Sequence record: OM272052.1
DNA from: Escherichia phage fBC-Eco01
Direction: 5' to 3' (one strand)
DNA: 43,466 bases
Shown: positions 3,893-39,020 of the stretch, piece by piece
Layout: each line of letters starts with the position of its first letter
Position numbering within the stretch: position 1 is the first letter of the stretch
Program-made: the position numbers and the translations under genes
The notes under the pieces: model-generated
What the model was told of the DNA's origin: nothing
Databases searched by the model: none
The model's input: the letters and a program-made list of their open reading frames with translations, nothing else

Positions 3893-3919
3893 TTTGCGTC
3901 TCCTGTTTAAGTTAACTGA

Positions 3920-3948
3920 ATAGTACCCTATTATATTGGTGTCTGCAA
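3920..3948 (-). promoter_or_regulatory. conserved promoter element copy A (TTGCAG-N17-TACTAT, minus-directed)
   Basis: minus-strand reading TTGCAGACACCAATATAATAGGGTACTATTCAG; matches copies at 6064, 15132, 37795. Confidence 0.45.
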
Positions 3949-6036: not shown

Positions 6037-6063
6037 GACGGCCTCCTCGGTTCGATAGAATGA

Positions 6064-6092
6064 ATAGTACCCTATTATATTGGGGTGCGCAA
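6064..6092 (-). promoter_or_regulatory. conserved promoter element copy B (TTGCGC-N17-TACTAT, minus-directed)
   Basis: minus-strand reading TTGCGCACCCCAATATAATAGGGTACTATTCA about 27 nt upstream of the small peptide ATG. Confidence 0.5.
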
Positions 6093-11951: not shown

Positions 11952-13118
11952 ATGGCTACAACTCCTTTTAAGGGCGCGAATACCGCGCAATTCTATGTGG
12001 CGGAAGTGACCCCTGGCGTAACACCGACTAACCCGGTCTGGTCGCCGTTGCGTAACACTGGCGGTGTTCCCGCGGTAACCCGCGATGCGCTGACTTCCAA
12101 CGAACTCGACGGCAGCAGAGAAACCACATCCATCCGCACCGGTAACAAACAGGTTAGCGGGGAGTACGCCATCGAACTTAGCTCACGTAGCCAGGATGAT
12201 TTCCTTGCGGGTGCTATGACTTCTACGTGGCAGGACGGGGTAGAGATTACGGGTGCTGAAATTACGGTCGCTCCAGCAGGTAAAACATTCACCCGCGCTG
12301 CCGGTAGCTTCATTACTGACGGTGTAGAGGTTGGCGACCTGATTGCATTCACCGACTTAACCGGCGACAACGCAAAACCGTTTATCGTGACCGCGGTCGA
12401 GGCGCTCGTAGTAACAGGCGCAGGCATTCAGCACACGCTGACAGCAGAGACAAAAACCAGTAAGGCTAAGACCGGGGATAAACTGGAAACCGGTAACGCA
12501 TGTAAGACGTTCTCTATCCTGACATGGTTCAAAGGACAGTGCGGGAACCCTGACGCGTACATGTTGACCAAAGGCGTGGAAATCTCCGGTTTTACTATCG
12601 AGCAGGCCGTGAACGCGATGGTGACAGGCAGCTTCCCGTTCATCGGTCTGAGTCAGGAAATTCTTACCGCGCCGCCAGCAGGTTCCGACTTCTCCCAGGT
12701 TACGTTCACCGATGAGCCGTTCTCGTCTGTAGATGTGTCTGTGTTCGACGGCTCTACTCCGTTGCGTTGCGATACTCTTACCATCACCAACGACAACGGC
12801 GCATCCGCTCAGTTTGAACTAGGGAACAGTAGCGTTGCGTTCGTGGAACGTGGTCGCGCAGCTAACACCTTCTCCATCTCTGGGAAGCTGTACGACATGG
12901 CGATGATTCAGAAGTTTATCAACGAGCAGCAGGTAGAGATTAACTCTATTCTGGCGGGGGTGAACGGGGCTATGTCTTTCAGTTTGAAACGCGCAGAACT
13001 TACGGCTGTTACGCCAGAAATATCTGGCCCGGAATCAATTACGCAAAGCATAGAAGGACAGTCCACAGGCAATCAATATCAATCTTCTATTGTTATCCAG
13101 CGTATCACCTACGCATAA
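11952..13118 (+). CDS. major tail protein (putative)
   Basis: ATG 11952 with RBS AAGAGG at 8 nt; 389 aa; last gene before terminator and tail chaperone/tape measure genes. Confidence 0.55.
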   Translation: MATTPFKGANTAQFYVAEVTPGVTPTNPVWSPLRNTGGVPAVTRDALTSNELDGSRETTSIRTGNKQVSGEYAIELSSRSQDDFLAGAMTSTWQDGVEITGAEITVAPAGKTFTRAAGSFITDGVEVGDLIAFTDLTGDNAKPFIVTAVEALVVTGAGIQHTLTAETKTSKAKTGDKLETGNACKTFSILTWFKGQCGNPDAYMLTKGVEISGFTIEQAVNAMVTGSFPFIGLSQEILTAPPAGSDFSQVTFTDEPFSSVDVSVFDGSTPLRCDTLTITNDNGASAQFELGNSSVAFVERGRAANTFSISGKLYDMAMIQKFINEQQVEINSILAGVNGAMSFSLKRAELTAVTPEISGPESITQSIEGQSTGNQYQSSIVIQRITYA

Positions 13119-13122
13119 AACT

Positions 13123-13147
13123 AAGGCCCCGAAAGGGGCCTTTTTCT
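13123..13147. terminator. bidirectional intrinsic terminator
   Basis: AGGCCCC-GAAA-GGGGCCT hairpin with A-run upstream and T-run downstream; ends both the + tail transcript and the - accessory operon. Confidence 0.6.
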
Positions 13148-13320
13148 TATTCCTTCAATTGCATAGGGTAGAAGTTAACGAGTTCTCCTTTATCCCGAAG
13201 CCGTGAATATTCATCTAACGCATCTTCCCGGCTACTTACAGCATAGATATCATTCCACTCGTCCCATTCTTCGTCATATACACGGATTACGTATATTGTT
13301 TTCATTACATTCTCACTCAT
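13147..13320 (-). CDS. hypothetical protein (accessory operon gene 5)
   Basis: internal ATG 13320 or 13305 preferred over track start 13362 to avoid a 50-nt overlap; acidic, W-rich small protein. Confidence 0.4.
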   Translation of the reverse strand: MSENVMKTIYVIRVYDEEWDEWNDIYAVSSREDALDEYSRLRDKGELVNFYPMQLKE

Positions 13321-15090: not shown

Positions 15091-15131
15091 GGTGTAGCTC
15101 CTGTTTGAGTTAACATTGTTGGTGTAAGTGA

Positions 15132-15160
15132 ATAGTATCCTATTATGTTGGGGTGCGCAA
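15132..15160 (-). promoter_or_regulatory. conserved promoter element copy C (TTGCGC-N17-TACTAT, minus-directed)
   Basis: minus-strand reading TTGCGCACCCCAACATAATAGGATACTATTCAC, 28 nt identical to copy D. Confidence 0.5.
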
Positions 15161-27117: not shown

Positions 27118-27402
27118 CTAACTATAATAGTTTGCTATTATGTCGTCAACCTGTTTGAACGAGCCGACGACAAAAACATTTGCACCACGTTTACGCATCC
27201 GTTCGTGTTCGCGTAACTGGTGTGGGTCTGGCTTCGTGTTTTCGTCTTTCTTGACCTCAACGAACCAGATGATGCCGCCGGGTAGAAGCACTAAGAGGTC
27301 GGGAGCGCCCACTCTATTTTCGTACGACAATTTGCGTACGAGGCCCCCCAGGGCCTCGAATCGCTCTTTTGCGTATTTCTGAATCTTGCCCTCCGGGGTC
27401 AT
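27118..27402 (-). CDS. VRR-NUC domain nuclease
   Basis: 94 aa; motif PDLLVLLPGGIIWFVEVKK characteristic of VRR-NUC (PD-(D/E)XK-type) proteins. Confidence 0.65.
   Translation of the reverse strand: MTPEGKIQKYAKERFEALGGLVRKLSYENRVGAPDLLVLLPGGIIWFVEVKKDENTKPDPHQLREHERMRKRGANVFVVGSFKQVDDIIANYYS
27121..27149 (-). promoter_or_regulatory. sigma70 consensus-like promoter (TTGACG-N17-TATAGT, minus-directed)
   Basis: minus-strand reading TTGACGACATAATAGCAAACTATTATAGT; overlaps the 3' end of the VRR-NUC gene. Confidence 0.5.
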
Positions 27403-31341: not shown

Positions 31342-31370
31342 ACTATAATAGCTAACTATTCAGGTGTCAA
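31342..31370 (-). promoter_or_regulatory. sigma70 consensus promoter (TTGACA-N17-TATAGT, minus-directed)
   Basis: minus-strand reading TTGACACCTGAATAGTTAGCTATTATAGT upstream of the SSB-like gene. Confidence 0.5.
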
Positions 31371-34206: not shown

Positions 34207-34270
34207 TGGGCTTTTCTAAAATAATTAATATGGTACTATTCACATATCAACTGACTAAGGAGTAATTGAC

Positions 34271-34486
34271 ATGCAACCATCTGAACTAGGCATCCGTGTA
34301 GAACAACGCCGCAAAGAACTCGGCATCTCCCAGCGCCGTCTGGCTGTCCTGACTGGCGTTTCCCAGGGCGCGATTAACCAACTGGCACTTGGGGTAACTC
34401 AGGACGTCCGCCCGGTGACGCTGTTTAAACTGGCGGAAGTGCTGGAAGTAGACGCCAAATGGCTGGCGTTTGGTGAAGGGGCTTAA
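34271..34486 (+). CDS. XRE-family helix-turn-helix transcriptional regulator (Cro/CI-like)
   Basis: 71 aa; HTH signature ISQRRLAVLTGVSQGAINQLA; RBS AAGGAG; own terminator. Confidence 0.7.
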   Translation: MQPSELGIRVEQRRKELGISQRRLAVLTGVSQGAINQLALGVTQDVRPVTLFKLAEVLEVDAKWLAFGEGA

Positions 34487-34502
34487 CGCCCCTTTCTTTT
34501 TA
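34477..34502 (+). terminator. intrinsic terminator after HTH gene
   Basis: AGGGGC-TTAAC-GCCCCT hairpin followed by TTCTTTTT. Confidence 0.55.
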
Positions 34503-34503
34503 C

Positions 34504-36711
34504 CTATTCCAAATCCTCTTCTGTCACTATCAGCATCTCATTCGGTTCGTATATTGTCTTCGGCCTTAACCTATCTCCTATTCTTTCGGGTATACGATAT
34601 GTTCTCGGTACTACTTCGCCGTTAGCATCGCAGCCGAGCATTAGTTCACCATCTTTCAGCATTTTATCAAGATGGGTGTTAGTCACAGAAAAGTCACCGG
34701 AACGGGCCACTATCTGCTGCTGAGTAAAACCGCGACCTGTGTCATCTGACTGTTGCAGGTCTTCCAGTGCTGAAAGTATTGACTCCTTCCTTACTTCATC
34801 CCTGCCGCGTTTAACCTCTTCCTTTACTTTTTGTTTACCTTCGTTATTCAGCCCTTCTTCCCGCTCTTTCTCCTCGTCAGTTTTGAACGGCTCGAAGCCC
34901 CACGGCATCAGCACAAGCGCCTTGTGCGGCTCCGGCAGGTCGAGGTTTACTATTGTGCCGTATTCCTCTGTGCCGCCCAGGAACTCAGCCGCACGGTACT
35001 CTTTCGGCGGTGGTGCTTCACGGAACTGTACAGACTCAAGTACCATGCCAACCGTTTTCTGTTGAGGCCCGTGCTTAAATTTCGAGTGGTATACGTTTAT
35101 CTGACGGTCGGTTGCACGTTCTATTGTCAGTTCCACATCGACACCCGCATACAGCGCCCCGCTGCCACGGGCTTTCTTTCCGCCCTTCGGTGTATGGTGG
35201 ACGACGCCCACCGCGGCTTTAGTTGCGTCACGTACTTCTTTCAGGATGGCGATAACTTTACCCATGCCGATTGCCGTTGATGAACTGTTCTCGTCGAACT
35301 TATCAATCGTCAGGGCCAGTGTCTGGTTAAGGGTGTCGAACGCAACCATCCCAATTGGCTCGTCACCCGCAGTTTCTCGCATTAGCTTAATCAGGCTTTT
35401 CAGTTTGCCAACTTCGCCCATATCGATGACATGTACATAATCTTTACCTTCCTCGCCGTATTTAGCCGCGAGTGCATCAATACGGGTGCGTGTGGCAGCA
35501 CCGCCCTCACCGTCAATATAGAAATGGTGGCAACGCTGTGTATCAGCGCCTGCAAACCGGTACCCTGCGGCGCTCAGGTACATCATACCCAGCGTATAGA
35601 ATGATTTATATGTGCCGGATTCCCCGACGATGTCCCAGATGCAATCCGACGGCATGTACCCTTCAACGACGAAATCAGCCTTTACCGGTTCAGGTAACTC
35701 GTCATCGTCTTCAAGGTCTTCCAGTGTACAAGTTACAGGCTCCTCGTTCTCTGTGCGGTGCAGTTCTTCAATCTCTTCATCCGGTAAATCAGGCAGAGCC
35801 GCACGAATGCTGTTAATACTGATAGGTTGCTTGTCTACGTTAAGCTCGTCTGGGAGGCCACACATGCGCAGGGCCAAATGTTGCCGGCGGTTAAGCTCGG
35901 TGCAAGCGCCGTTGTTTGTGTGCTGACACACGAAGCGCACTTCTTTACCGTCAAGCATGATGCTGGTGGAGCCTTTTCCGGTGTGCAGGTGCTCGTTAGG
36001 GCAAGGCACTTCGTACCCACGCCCGGAAGATAAAGCGTCAAGACCAAGCTCGGCTTCGCAGAAATGCGCTATATCAGCGTTAAGCCCATGCTCATCGGCG
36101 ACAAGGGTCTTAGCTTCACGTTTACGCAGCCCCATTTCTTCGGCTTTCTTGATGTACCGCTCGGCACGGATAACACGCCCTTCTGTAACCGTTATCTTCG
36201 ACTCTTTATGCGGCAGGTAGATAAGGCGGTTGCCATCTTCTGTGCAGTGGTCGCGCAATGCTTCGTCTATTCCTAACTCTGCACAAATAGCACGTTGCAC
36301 CATCCACGCATCGTTAGAGTTAAACGGAGTACGAGCCGGAACCAGAACGCGGAATGCGTAATCACCGTTTTTACACGCGTGCTGATGCGATGCCGTTGTG
36401 TGCAGAATATTGAAGAACGGCGCGTTCTTGAATTTGCGGGTAAGGTCGCGGTACTGAGTACGGTTGAGATGGTCGAAGTCGAACTTAACCACACTGTCTT
36501 CCAGGATAGCGTTTTTACGGCGACCACCAACGGGGGCAATAGCTTTCTGCTTAATCTTGGCGGCGTCGTACTCTTCCTTAGTCCATGACGGGTCCACGGA
36601 TAAACGCTTCGATGTATCGCAGACATACTCTACGAACTGCTCCAGCGGCATTTCACGTGCTACAGGGTTTTTATCGAATGTGTTACGCAGCGTTGCAAAA
36701 ACAATATTCAT
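34504..36711 (-). CDS. DNA primase-helicase (phage-type primase plus P-loop NTPase)
   Basis: 735 aa; Zn-binding Cys/His cluster CPNEHLHTGKG...FVCQHTNNGAC; Walker A VGESGTYKS. Confidence 0.75.
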   Translation of the reverse strand: MNIVFATLRNTFDKNPVAREMPLEQFVEYVCDTSKRLSVDPSWTKEEYDAAKIKQKAIAPVGGRRKNAILEDSVVKFDFDHLNRTQYRDLTRKFKNAPFFNILHTTASHQHACKNGDYAFRVLVPARTPFNSNDAWMVQRAICAELGIDEALRDHCTEDGNRLIYLPHKESKITVTEGRVIRAERYIKKAEEMGLRKREAKTLVADEHGLNADIAHFCEAELGLDALSSGRGYEVPCPNEHLHTGKGSTSIMLDGKEVRFVCQHTNNGACTELNRRQHLALRMCGLPDELNVDKQPISINSIRAALPDLPDEEIEELHRTENEEPVTCTLEDLEDDDELPEPVKADFVVEGYMPSDCIWDIVGESGTYKSFYTLGMMYLSAAGYRFAGADTQRCHHFYIDGEGGAATRTRIDALAAKYGEEGKDYVHVIDMGEVGKLKSLIKLMRETAGDEPIGMVAFDTLNQTLALTIDKFDENSSSTAIGMGKVIAILKEVRDATKAAVGVVHHTPKGGKKARGSGALYAGVDVELTIERATDRQINVYHSKFKHGPQQKTVGMVLESVQFREAPPPKEYRAAEFLGGTEEYGTIVNLDLPEPHKALVLMPWGFEPFKTDEEKEREEGLNNEGKQKVKEEVKRGRDEVRKESILSALEDLQQSDDTGRGFTQQQIVARSGDFSVTNTHLDKMLKDGELMLGCDANGEVVPRTYRIPERIGDRLRPKTIYEPNEMLIVTEEDLE

Positions 36712-37196: not shown

Positions 37197-37375
37197 TTCA
37201 CATTCTCCTTAATCCACGCTTCAACTTTATTACGGTCAAATGTTCCTGGTAAACGGCGACCCATAACTTTAATACAGCAGTCAGGGAATTTACCACTGCG
37301 CAACCAGTTATTAATTGTCTGGCGTGTCACCCCAATACGCTCAGCTACTTCATTCTGTGTCATGTAATGTTGCAT
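37193..37375 (-). CDS. helix-turn-helix DNA-binding protein (AlpA/Xis-like)
   Basis: ATG 37375 with RBS AGGAGA at 8 nt; HTH segment TQNEVAERIGVTRQTINNWLRSGKFP. Confidence 0.55.
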   Translation of the reverse strand: MQHYMTQNEVAERIGVTRQTINNWLRSGKFPDCCIKVMGRRLPGTFDRNKVEAWIKENVK

Positions 37376-37396: not shown

Positions 37397-37425
37397 GGTG
37401 GAGCTGAGTATAGGATAGCGGGGAT
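37397..37425 (-). promoter_or_regulatory. candidate promoter for leftward replication operon (TTGCTT-N17-TATACT)
   Basis: minus-strand reading TTGCTTTTACATCCCCGCTATCCTATACT, about 20 nt upstream of the HTH gene. Confidence 0.45.
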
Positions 37426-37472
37426 GTAAAAGCAACCAATCCCTGCTATATTTAATCTTTACAAAAAAGTTA

Positions 37473-37502
37473 TTGAAAGTTCTTGACACATGTTTGTATA
37501 AT
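37473..37502 (+). promoter_or_regulatory. strong sigma70-like promoter (TTGAAA-N18-TATAAT)
   Basis: perfect -10 TATAAT, good -35; no ORF downstream before terminator at 37702. Confidence 0.5.
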
Positions 37503-37508
37503 GGTTTT

Positions 37509-37729
37509 GGGACTTGTATATATTACGGAGTTGACGAACCCTCCCCGAGGGATTCGTCAACCCCTCCCAGACAACTGAGATGCTTGCCTTGGGGTTTAAG
37601 GATAAGTGTATCTAAATCTCATTTAAAGAAGTAACCCGCTGAAATATCTACTGTTTCTTAATGTGCCGTAGATTCGCAACCGTAAAAATGTAACGATTAT
37701 TGGGCAGGCTTAAGGCCTGCCCTTTAGTT
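37509..37729 (+). ncRNA. candidate ~220-nt non-coding RNA
   Basis: bounded by TTGAAA-N18-TATAAT promoter and GGGCAGGC-TTAAG-GCCTGCCC terminator; 5' region holds a 14/15-bp hairpin; no RBS-led ORF. Confidence 0.3.
37702..37729 (+). terminator. intrinsic terminator
   Basis: 8-bp GC-rich stem GGGCAGGC/GCCTGCCC followed by TTTAGTT. Confidence 0.55.
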
Positions 37730-37794
37730 ACCAAGTAATAAGAATAAAGGCACAACCTTCCCTAAAGAATCACAACGGCAACGTAACTAATCTC

Positions 37795-37823
37795 TTGCAC
37801 ACCCCAACATAATAGGATACTAT
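37795..37823 (+). promoter_or_regulatory. conserved promoter element copy D (TTGCAC-N17-TACTAT, plus-directed)
   Basis: TTGCACACCCCAACATAATAGGATACTATTCAC upstream of the rightward small-gene cluster. Confidence 0.5.
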
Positions 37824-37857
37824 TCACGTATCGGGACGAGACAGAGGAGTGAGGGTT

Positions 37858-38043
37858 GTGTTTAAGAAGGGTCAGTTGGCGAAAACTAAACGCGGCGGAC
37901 AGTACGTAATAGTTACCCAGGACGAGGATGAATTTAGTATCGCTGTAGACGTATGGGGGCTTGTACGAAAGAAACATGGTTACGCTTTCCGCGATAATTT
38001 AAAACTCATCGGCAACAATTTTAAATTCAAAGGGGCGAAGTGA
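37858..38043 (+). CDS. hypothetical protein
   Basis: GTG 37858 with RBS GAGGAG at 8 nt; 61 aa. Confidence 0.5.
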   Translation: MFKKGQLAKTKRGGQYVIVTQDEDEFSIAVDVWGLVRKKHGYAFRDNLKLIGNNFKFKGAK

Positions 38044-38960: not shown

Positions 38961-38989
38961 TTGCACGCTGGGATAGAATAGACTACTAT
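38961..38989 (+). promoter_or_regulatory. promoter element variant (TTGCAC-N17-TACTAT, plus-directed)
   Basis: TTGCACGCTGGGATAGAATAGACTACTATTCATC; same -35/-10 and downstream TTCA as copies A-D, divergent spacer. Confidence 0.5.
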
Positions 38990-39020
38990 TCATCTACACA
39001 AACGAGAGGAGAGACAGAAG

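Follow-up and report, generated by a model that had tools for sequence, protein, structure and literature searches.

A promoter-headed, structured non-coding stretch with a highly conserved palindromic core between the divergent early operons of a Kagunavirus phage

In the Kagunavirus phage Escherichia phage fBC-Eco01 (OM272052.1), a promoter-driven, protein-free and strongly folded stretch separates two divergent early operons, and the question is what such a stretch might do. The original prediction was a ~220-nt non-coding RNA between a promoter and a terminator, with a regulatory sRNA, a leader or an RNA for host takeover as possible roles. We have analysed the locus within the whole 43,466-nt stretch of this record (the window) and compared it with ~390 Guernseyvirinae genomes. 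In the literature we found neither a transcriptome nor an origin mapping nor any report of an ncRNA for Guernseyvirinae phages. We consider it probable that the region is a real non-coding element of some kind, transcribed and organised in cis. Most likely it acts in cis, as a control transcript or as the transcript of a replication origin, rather than as an ordinary small regulatory RNA.

The non-coding stretch is ~480 nt long and abuts the primase-helicase operon. To its left, the leftward operon starts at 37375 and is preceded by the replication-operon promoter read from the minus strand (TTGCTT-N17-TATACT, 37407–37435), the -10 of which is kept in all relatives (the AGTATA column is invariant in the alignments). 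Its -35 is overlapped by an inverted repeat, ATAGCGGGGAT / ATCCCTGCTAT (37415–37449), which looks like an operator. The divergent neighbour codes for a 60-aa protein matching HTH_17 (E = 1.6e-8) and phrog_66 (excisionase and transcriptional regulator). To the right, the early genes are headed by a plus-strand phage consensus promoter/operator, TTGCAC-N17-TACTAT with the palindrome ATAATAGGATACTATT (37795–37824), a motif found nine times in the genome (0.24 expected) and always upstream of an RBS and a start codon. The first real rightward gene (61 aa, phrog_12538) starts with GTG at 37858, after the RBS GAGGAGTGAGGG, and together they set the right-hand limit of the non-coding region (37844–38043, plus strand). 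The location first proposed, between the leftward replication-operon promoter (37435–37407) and the rightward early promoter (37795–37823), was therefore correct. The same order of promoter, non-coding stretch and second promoter, with divergent gene blocks on either side, comes in several sequence types, and in Jerseyviruses the equivalent region is ~1 kb long with no annotated gene.

The rightward sigma70-type promoter that opens the stretch, TTGAAA-N18-TATAAT (37473–37502, plus strand; predicted start ~37509), had been described as strong. It does match the consensus at 11 of 12 positions, with hexamers near TTGACA/TATAAT and spacing within 16–18 nt, and across the genome (43.5 kb, both strands) there are three sites of this quality against 0.47 expected in shuffles. 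This particular version is specific to the lineage of the window, but each relative still has a rightward promoter there: TTGAC[AT]-N17-TAAG[GTC]T with unrelated spacers in types B, J, G and N, and TTGACA-N16-TAAAAT in K1G. The hexamers are kept across relatives and the spacing is mostly 17 nt. It also lacks the palindromic operator present at about nine other phage promoters, which places it in a different temporal class.

Could the region simply encode a small protein? The plus-strand ORFs at 37473 and 37483 begin within the promoter, and downstream of ~37509 the ORF list holds only ATG frames of 10–11 codons, none of them with a Shine-Dalgarno sequence, so that inspection agreed with the prediction of no RBS-led ORF. 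One candidate for a protein is a 35-codon minus-strand ORF (37648–37755), stretched to 60 codons in some annotations. It does span the conserved block described below, and gene callers have annotated ORFs here in Bas71 and EcoPhCCP1. However, it starts with TTG and has no properly spaced RBS, its length varies among close relatives, and its frame is shifted in natural variants (many Jerseyviruses lack 1 nt, and L013 has 1 nt more). The 98% nucleotide identity, would-be synonymous sites included, exceeds that of every real gene of the genome. No other ORF spans the core, and no short coding frame is conserved in the relatives. We regard a small protein here as extremely improbable.

The fold of the predicted transcript is strong. 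The RNA from 37509 to 37729 folds at -71.7 kcal/mol (z = -4.7) and opens with a near-perfect hairpin (37527–37564, plus strand; 37527–37543 pairs with 37547–37564) of -24 kcal/mol (z = -6.3), which also appeared as an inverted repeat in the repeat search; the prediction had placed it at 37530–37561. This hairpin (type A) is found in only ~20 close relatives. Other lineages have different long hairpins in the same place, with compensatory pairs, and the 5′ halves can be sorted into types A, B, J and G/N. A weaker candidate is a small plus-strand helix, AUCUAC/GUAGAU (37646–37673), around the motif TGCCGTAG (37664–37671), which is common to all module types (see below); in the other types the helix is kept with a G-U wobble. 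A further pairing, between 37751–37763 and the RBS and start of the first gene, is probably due to chance, as it is not kept in Bas71.

We could not assign this structure to any described family. Rfam 15 gave no match in the window at the gathering threshold, the best sub-threshold one being Hrs12 (22.6 bits vs. a threshold of 70, mainly over the terminal hairpin), and the B, J, G and N loci gave no match at E ≤ 1. The scan for tRNA and tmRNA found nothing. Since the stretch is non-coding, strongly structured, headed by a promoter and matched by no described RNA family, a functional non-coding transcript is the natural reading.

The strongest constraint, however, does not follow the limits of such a transcript. 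An imperfect palindrome of 100 nt (37658–37757, plus strand) is identical at 98 of 100 positions to the Jerseyvirus wksl3, which makes it the top 100-nt window of the genome (median 74), and it is present in 334 phage records. It folds as a single long hairpin (z = -4.25) with the paired arms UGUGCC/GGCACA, AUUC/GAAU, GUAAC/GUUAC and GGGCAGGC/GCCUGCCC. At its apex lies the GC-rich terminator of the original prediction (37702–37729, plus strand), in which GGGCAGGC-TTAAG-GCCTGCCC (37702–37722) is followed by TTTAGTT. The hairpin and its U-containing tail are present, and the apical stem of 9 bp (7 of them G-C) is kept in the 334 records, with one compensatory pair, C:G to U:A (CG:19, UA:4), and a G-U wobble variant in L013. 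Judged from its conservation, this putative terminator hairpin is real, although the pattern alone is not above chance (three found vs. 2.9 expected in a 3-kb scan). The U-tract is weak. It consists of three U followed by AGUU, invariant in sequence but short, it passes a lenient terminator scan, and the minimum-energy fold pairs part of it with the upstream GUAAC. We call the site a weak intrinsic-terminator-like one. In the covariation check, compensatory pairs supported the 5′ and apical hairpins, but not the outer stem of the core (UGUGCC/GGCACA), which we rejected as a supported helix: natural variants break two of its pairs and none is compensated.

Neither is the unit cleanly bounded by this terminator, as had been proposed. 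Conservation is symmetric about the hairpin loop and extends ~35 nt beyond the stem and ~28 nt beyond the U-tract, up to 37757. A transcript ending at the terminator does not account for this pattern, and an element acting at the DNA level, or as DNA and RNA combined, does explain it. Further right, the anchor GAATCACAACGGCAACGTAACT (37767–37788, plus strand) is invariant in all five types. Its ACGGCA is complementary to the TGCCGT at 37664–37669, and the two motifs bracket an exchangeable module; in N-type RNAs they pair with each other in the minimum-energy fold.

In sister phages, one of two unrelated hairpin modules stands in place of the core, inside the same flanking motifs. This slot is known with at least three modules that bear no relation to one another, the core in 334 records, G in 20 and N in 32, each well conserved within its type. 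The modules also differ at their 3′ ends: G has only a marginal terminator-like site and U-rich tail, and the terminator scan found no such site in K1G, which carries N. In the G type, the 5′ region forms a significant helix with the sequence after the hairpin (-28 kcal/mol, p ~0.02), so that the G-type RNA appears to continue past its hairpin; this long-range helix is marginal in N and absent in the type of the window. Every G module comes with one particular type of primase-helicase C-terminal domain, the two being present in the same records (20/20), and every N module with another type (32/32). The core, however, has also been found combined with these two types of C-terminus, in two isolates and in a contig from a metagenome. 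A scan of five full genomes found no other segment sharing the distribution of the modules. One could imagine, speculatively and with little probability, a family of exchangeable non-coding RNA cassettes (core, G and N), bracketed by TGCCGT/ACGGCA and expressed at the onset of infection, each binding or mimicking some highly conserved machine or defence component of the host. Candidate partners would be RNA polymerase, the ribosome, a ribonuclease or an immune system that senses RNA, and the near-total invariance of the sequence among phages of E. coli and Salmonella would mean that every nucleotide is fitted to its partner in the host. If true, the cassettes would represent a new class of RNA effectors in phages.

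Another reading is a trans-acting sRNA of ~220 nt for host takeover or anti-defence, ending at the hairpin, in which the conserved single-stranded segment 37660–37701 would base-pair to mRNAs of the host or be bound by one of its proteins, with the G and N modules giving RNAs directed at different targets. The 221 nt from promoter to terminator-like site is an sRNA size, within the 50–300 nt of an Hfq-type sRNA, and the invariant 40-nt segment directly upstream of the hairpin is predicted to be mostly unpaired. Unrelated cassettes are swapped at the start of the early region without regard to the other genes of the phage, a pattern typical of accessory and counter-defence loci, and the conservation spans phages of E. 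coli and Salmonella, hosts whose core RNAs and proteins are nearly identical. One phage sRNA that runs from promoter to terminator is oop of lambda, which is antisense to a neighbouring gene. The element studied here resembles oop in its size, independent promoter and terminal hairpin, but we found no antisense or trans target in the phage (11 complementary matches of at least 10 nt within the genome vs. 16 expected), and its conservation reaches beyond the RNA. BLAST against 5,426 E. coli genomes gave no host homologue at E ≤ 10, and there is no similarity to any Rfam family either. Nine bacterial assemblies do contain an 18-mer of the core, but eight of these are chance matches (flanks at background identity) and in the ninth, a Taishania assembly, the 18-mer lies on a contig of a Jerseyvirus. 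The equal conservation of the ~28 nt downstream of the U-tract falls outside such an RNA, the U-tail is short (UUUAGUU) where an Hfq-type sRNA has a long one, and the G-type RNA would have to be longer than the discrete species proposed. The non-coding nature, the structure and the positional conservation of the promoter support part of the original reading, but the discrete trans-acting sRNA becomes the weakest of the roles suggested, given the constraint past the terminator, the weak U-tract, the unrelated sister modules and a 5′ hairpin found in only ~20 relatives. We consider it unlikely and place it third. A cis-acting leader, or a transcription-dependent replication origin (which was not among the roles suggested), fits better.

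The leader would belong to the rightward early operon and be attenuated or subject to antitermination: from a constitutive promoter most polymerases would stop at the hairpin, giving the ~220-nt RNA as a by-product. Read-through into the early, and possibly the same-strand late, genes would need a phage factor, for example the neighbouring excisionase-like HTH protein acting in a Q- or AlpA-like manner, or a leader RNA acting on RNA polymerase as put does in HK022. The order of elements is the appropriate one, with a promoter, an untranslated structured leader, a GC hairpin with a U-rich tail and genes on the same strand. The separate temporal class of the promoter, the 5′ hairpins conserved in structure and the regulator encoded by the divergent neighbour are likewise consistent with it. 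So is the presence of TTGTATA twice, once over the -10 (37494–37500) and again as a -10-like copy at ~+6 to +12 (37514–37520, plus strand), a repeat that could be a putative sigma70-dependent pause signal. All this recalls the pR′-6S RNA-tR′ unit of lambda, in which a constitutive sigma70 promoter, a ~200-nt untranslated RNA and an intrinsic terminator precede same-strand genes controlled by Q antitermination, and of which an AlpA-type variant occurs in Pseudomonas. The likeness covers the promoter, the predicted RNA of ~200 nt, the terminator-like end, the early -10-like repeat and the adjoining HTH gene. However, profile comparison showed neither Q homology nor a Phage_AlpA match for the neighbouring protein (it is an HTH_17), and the TTGTATA repeat is seen only in the lineage of the window. 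A separate promoter 65 nt downstream serves the early genes, the terminator is weak in the window, marginal in G and not found by the scan in K1G, and the conservation is far above what such a unit needs. Terminators and leaders normally conserve structure rather than 98% sequence identity, and here the identity continues 35 nt past the stem. The put RNA of HK022 and the lambdoid nut sites are also structured, lie just downstream of divergent early promoters, act in cis on the polymerase and have alternative versions in related phages. These elements are ~15–70 nt long and stand upstream of terminators, unlike the conserved element here, which includes the terminator-like hairpin itself; moreover, we found no boxA-like motif conserved across the types and no similarity to put or nut. 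We rank a leader second, as a possible but rather unlikely explanation.

The symmetry of the core suggests yet another alternative, a purely DNA-level element independent of transcription from 37473, such as a binding platform for a phage or host regulator of the downstream promoter, a pac site or a recombination boundary for module exchange. Conservation around the palindrome and past the presumed transcript end would be expected of it, the inverted TGCCGT and ACGGCA motifs bracket the module, and the flanking sequences are mosaic. The motif GAATAAAGGCAC appears again directly upstream of another consensus promoter and after a second hairpin in Jerseyviruses. In addition, four Jerseyvirus GenBank records open inside the block, but these openings are contiguous circular permutations at four positions and look like a reorientation artefact. 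The gene for the terminase small subunit, and hence the usual location of pac, is ~6 kb away. Every lineage keeps a promoter just upstream in spite of complete sequence turnover, and the compensatory changes in the transcribed 5′ part are explicable only by RNA or single-strand structure. An element of DNA alone is in our view improbable.

This leaves, as our first choice, a role as replication origin or early cis-transcript, which we hold tentatively, at somewhat less than even chances. Once the DNA enters the cell, host RNA polymerase would start at the 37473–37502 promoter and make an untranslated RNA folding into the 5′ hairpin and a long 3′ stem-loop. Transcription would probably stop in part at the weak terminator (~220 nt) and otherwise go on in the direction of the second promoter and the early genes. 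The palindromic block 37658–37757 would be the core for function, and transcription through it, or its RNA, would open or prime a replication origin directly beside the replication operon. The rightward promoter at the same position in every relative, the absence of an RBS-led ORF, with natural indels breaking the one frame that spans the core, the strong folding at all three levels (z = -4.7, -6.3 and -4.25) with compensatory pairs, and the most conserved 100 nt between two genera all point to this role. So do the long non-coding stretch beside the primase-helicase operon, the unrelated modules conserved within type, and the link of G and N each to one primase-helicase C-terminal type. Promoter-dependent entry to replication is known from other systems: in ColE1 (RNA II) and at the origins of T7 and T4, a host-polymerase transcript with a required fold starts replication, and promoter and origin form one unit. 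RNA II, however, is longer, G-rich at the site of hybrid formation and controlled by an antisense RNA, and none of these features is seen here. The RNA here is rich in C and not in G, a composition that does not speak for a stable R-loop, and as the phage encodes its own primase a primer made by RNA polymerase is not strictly required.

Other classical marks of an origin are faint or missing. The repeat search found no clear iteron array, and there is no AT-rich unwinding region longer than ~28 nt; neither the G nor the N module is AT-rich in the part that follows the hairpin. Enrichment of GTAAC (four vs. 1.6 expected) and ACGGCA (two vs. 0.9 expected) is modest, and TGTTCACC, which we take to be the P4 iteron (of a P4 alpha-like origin), is not clustered here. 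The exceptions among the isolates and the metagenomic contig break the coupling between module and primase-helicase C-terminus, and a PDB sequence search with the primase-helicase gave no useful match. Folding energies do not differ between the two strands and so do not assign the structure to either of them. The cumulative GC skew does reach its minimum here, but we discarded it as evidence for an origin since in this genome the sign of the skew goes with the orientation of the genes (it is negative over the minus-strand genes at 13–15 kb). Another candidate origin that we considered lies in the intergenic stretch downstream of the primase-helicase; this stretch contains an XRE-type gene and promoters rather than iterons.

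The closest parallel in layout comes from the origins of lactococcal Ceduovirus phages (c2, bIL67, 923). These are described as non-coding and devoid of ORF or RBS, with divergent gene blocks on either side and the first two early promoters at their flanks (PMC7150918, citing Schiemann 2004, Rakonjac 2003, and Lubbers 1998). Three types exist, each >90% conserved internally and without relation to the others; they function without phage proteins and are independent of matched phage proteins (PMC7150918). Their promoter yields a non-coding transcript, PE1-T, reported as essential for origin function (PMC7150918). For c2, origin function was demonstrated by plasmid replication assays. The locus studied here shares this arrangement, with a non-coding region between divergent blocks, an interval free of RBS-led ORFs from the promoter at 37473 to that at 37795, a predicted structured untranslated transcript from the first promoter, and several sequence types conserved within and unrelated between. 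The likeness is one of architecture only, read from sequence, and we do not class the region as a c2-type origin; the hosts belong to different phyla and no sequence relationship is expected. There are also differences, as our phage has its own DNA polymerase and primase-helicase, and its conserved block is a palindrome centred on a terminator-like hairpin.

Whatever its role, this unit matters for a group of phages in wide use. The Guernseyvirinae (Kagunavirus, Jerseyvirus) belong to the phages most frequently isolated on E. coli and Salmonella, with applications in therapy, biocontrol and synthetic genomes, and CM001, the closest relative of the window, is an engineering chassis. Yet a unit of ~320 nt holding the most constrained 100-nt core of the genome is absent from current annotation, and gene callers, where they have marked anything in it, put doubtful short ORFs there. 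If it acts as an RNA effector, it would be of a new kind. If it is an origin or an early switch, knowing it would be essential to the design of genomes and to an understanding of host range once the DNA has entered the cell. Under either reading, the naturally interchangeable modules of these phages offer ready-made swap experiments.

The window (43.5 kb) is the essentially complete genome of a Kagunavirus (Guernseyvirinae) and is, in the region analyzed here, 96-97% identical to the phages UTI-CM001, 590B and Bas71. A non-coding gap of 480 nt separates two divergent operons, the leftward one encoding a 60-aa excisionase-type HTH protein, two small proteins and a 735-aa primase-helicase, and the rightward one small early genes starting at a GTG (37858). 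The original prediction placed in this gap a non-coding RNA bounded by a promoter and a terminator, and all the features on which it was built were recovered: a sigma70-type promoter (TTGAAA-N18-TATAAT, 37473-37502) matching 11 of 12 consensus positions, a score reached by three sites on both strands of the genome against 0.47 expected; past the predicted start (ca. 37509), nothing but frames of 10-11 codons, none with a ribosome-binding site (RBS); a 5' hairpin at 37527-37564 (-24 kcal/mol, z = -6.3); and a GC-rich, terminator-like hairpin at 37702-37722, followed by TTTAGTT. The predicted RNA of 221 nt folds far more stably than shuffled controls (z = -4.7). Bare promoter-like and terminator-like patterns are found at chance level in a 3-kb stretch, and what leads us to consider the features real is mainly their conservation, together with the very high promoter score. 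The sequence TTGTATA appears twice, 20 nt apart, over the -10 (37494-37500) and in the initially transcribed region (37514-37520). Repeats of this kind, overlapping the -10 and recurring in the initially transcribed region, are a known cause of sigma70-dependent promoter-proximal pausing.

The second rightward promoter (37795-37823, + strand) is one of a phage-specific set of promoters with the palindrome ATAATAGGATACTATT, a motif with 9 copies in the genome (0.24 expected), each with an RBS and a start codon downstream. The promoter/operator motif TTGCRCACCCCAAYATAATAGGRTACTATTCA, which contains the palindrome AATAG-N4-CTATT, is located at 3919-3934(-), 6063-6078(-), 15131-15146(-), 37809-37824(+) and 38975-38990(+); weaker palindromic copies (27124-27141, 31345-31360 and 34225-34240) are found in strong leftward promoters (TTGAC[AG]-N17-TATAGT) or adjoining them. 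The same promoter motif had been found by PHIRE in fBC-Eco01 and ascribed to a phage RNA polymerase (PMC9825357). The promoter at 37473 lacks the ATAATAGGATACTATT palindrome, therefore falls in another class, possibly an immediate-early one. From the first rightward promoter to the second, the whole space is thus taken up by the non-coding unit. An 11-nt inverted repeat (ATAGCGGGGAT/ATCCCTGCTAT, 37415-37449) covers the -35 of the leftward promoter and a third GGGAT copy is found within the 5' hairpin (ca. 37548); the HTH protein encoded next to them may recognize these sequences as operator half-sites. An XRE/Cro-type HTH gene of 71 codons (34272-34487, +), annotated as DicA-like/CRO in phage Golestan, separates the primase-helicase from the next leftward operon and is read from the opposite strand; it has its own consensus-like promoter and a terminator-like hairpin (34476-34500), and the genome-wide palindrome is a candidate target of its product. 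Elsewhere, a 34-nt stretch (13116-13149) is 100% identical to the Jerseyvirus wksl3, matching at three places in that genome, and probably represents a repeated hairpin, either terminator-like or regulatory.

The promoter and 5' hairpin of the window are covered by only 20 of the 387 phage records that match the region. Five types of intergenic sequence could be distinguished: A (the window), B (K1ind1-like), J (Jerseyvirus), and G and N (other Kagunaviruses). All five have a single rightward promoter in the same position, which outside type A takes the form TTGAC[AT]-N17-TAAG[GTC]T with unrelated spacers (TTGACA-N16-TAAAAT in phage K1G); conserved hexamers, nearly constant spacing and free spacers give these the look of working promoters. 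A long hairpin follows the promoter in every type, differing in sequence by type, with compensatory substitutions distinguishing the stems of J from those of the B subtypes, e.g., G:C to A:U (16 and 7 sequences). The region thus appears to be under selection for a single-strand fold downstream of the promoter, which points to RNA. Folding energies alone gave no distinction between strands. We regard a site acting only as DNA as improbable. In Jerseyviruses (records L003/L005, about 1650-2220) the non-coding region is about 1 kb long and holds a second hairpin with the same GAATAAAGGCAC motif after it, more ACGGCA copies and additional consensus promoters, which suggests an arrangement in tandem units.

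The 3' part (37639-37833) is common to Kagunaviruses and Salmonella Jerseyviruses, and its most conserved 100 nt (37658-37757, the core) were found in 334 phage records. Against wksl3 the core is 98/100 identical, where the genome typically shows 74% per 100 nt, making it the single best among about 27,000 windows of this size. It is centered on the hairpin loop and extends about 35 nt past the stem. The core is predicted to fold as one long imperfect hairpin (z = -4.25) with four paired segments, UGUGCC/GGCACA, AUUC/GAAU, GUAAC/GUUAC and GGGCAGGC/GCCUGCCC. Natural variation allows a test of the apical stem only, where one compensatory pair (C:G to U:A, 19 and 4 sequences) and a single variant with G-U wobble were observed; two pairs of the outer helix are broken in natural variants without compensation, and this helix is therefore unproven. 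A small protein is hardly credible as the explanation: only one ORF, of 35 codons on the minus strand, runs across the block; it has no RBS at the proper spacing, natural 1-nt indels shift its frame, and it could not explain 98% nucleotide identity. Just after the core, 13 nt (37751-37763) show 85% complementarity to 37848-37860, where the first early gene has its RBS and start codon; this pairing is absent from Bas71 and so probably due to chance. Four Jerseyvirus GenBank records from one project (templet, celemicas, blauehaus and dunkel) are opened inside the core at four different positions, equivalent to 37635-37683 of the window; at least two are contiguous circular permutations, and the openings could be either a reorientation artefact or a physical end. 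PP935706.1 (164,642 bp), with four core copies, is probably several concatenated genomes, and OR594180.1 (SHAK7693) is a Kagunavirus-like genome classified as Autographiviridae/Kayfunavirus.

Instead of the core, 20 phage records carry a G module, with a (CTCA)n repeat and the hairpin GGUGCC-UUCG-GGCACC, and 32 others an N module, whose hairpin is GGGUGGGC-UAAC-GCCCACCC. The CTCA microsatellite varies between phages from about 3 to 7 copies (record L006 vs. L025). Core, G and N share one slot, framed by TGCCGTA[GA]G to the left and GAATCACAACGGCAACGTAACT (37767-37788) to the right, both invariant. These flanks contain TGCCGT and ACGGCA, which are complementary to each other and pair when N-type RNAs are folded at minimum energy. 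The tail of the G hairpin is only marginally U-rich, and a scan of the N-type phage K1G found no terminator-like site. In G-type RNAs there is pairing between the 5' region and the post-hairpin sequence (-28 kcal/mol, p about 0.02), which is absent in the window's type. A clean intrinsic terminator is therefore not a common requirement of the slot, which weakens the original reading where it places the boundary of the unit at a terminator; the reading of a non-coding, structured unit stands. An attenuated or antitermination leader would suit the structured 5' region ahead of the early genes, but we regard such a leader as rather unlikely.

The layout of the unit matches that described for the replication origin of lactococcal Ceduovirus (c2), a likeness in architecture and not homology. 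That origin is non-coding, devoid of ORF or RBS, and located between divergent gene blocks, with the first two early promoters (PE1 and PE2) on either side; PE1 makes a non-coding transcript, PE1-T, reported to be essential for origin function. Origins of three types are described, which function without phage proteins and show >90% conservation inside each type but no relationship from one type to another (PMC7150918). Checks on a possible origin role gave a mixed picture. No iteron array was found in our region, and the GC skew minimum located here is uninformative, since skew follows gene orientation. The primase-helicase gene (34504-36711, -) is a mosaic, with two N-terminal types (about 25% identical) and three unrelated C-terminal domains of ca. 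100 residues. The G modules all go with a single C-terminal type (the same 20 records), and the N modules all with a second (32/32); this coupling persists although the intervening DNA is mosaic and N is found with either N-terminal type. It is suggestive but not decisive, because in two isolates and one metagenomic contig the core occurs together with the other C-terminal types. G-type phages also have a distinct central region of this protein, and Golestan (G) and K1G (N) have a small gene annotated directly downstream of it, without counterpart in the window. Across five full genomes no other segment shared the distribution of the module, which fits a host-factor-dependent element, as in c2 origins, and equally an accessory RNA.

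No antisense targets of an RNA acting in trans, one of the roles originally proposed, were found in the phage genome, and we consider this role unlikely. The Rfam search advised with the original prediction matched no family for any of the types, and neither tRNA or tmRNA nor similarity to E. coli genomes was detected. Core 18-mer matches in bacterial assemblies were due to chance or to a phage contaminant; the Jerseyvirus-type sequence of the region in a Taishania pollutisoli (Bacteroidota) scaffold (NZ_JACVEL010000022.1, 18,987 bp) is probably such contamination.

Judging from sequence comparison, the unit is probably a genuine, transcribed, non-coding and cis-organized element, neither a gene nor a chance pattern. 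As to its role, we tentatively place first a transcription-dependent origin or early cis-transcript. This is less than an even prospect, but no other reading accounts at once for the symmetric, sequence-level conservation past the presumed end of the transcript, the location next to the replication genes and the occurrence of types that are unrelated to one another yet conserved internally. The proposed roles are not mutually exclusive.
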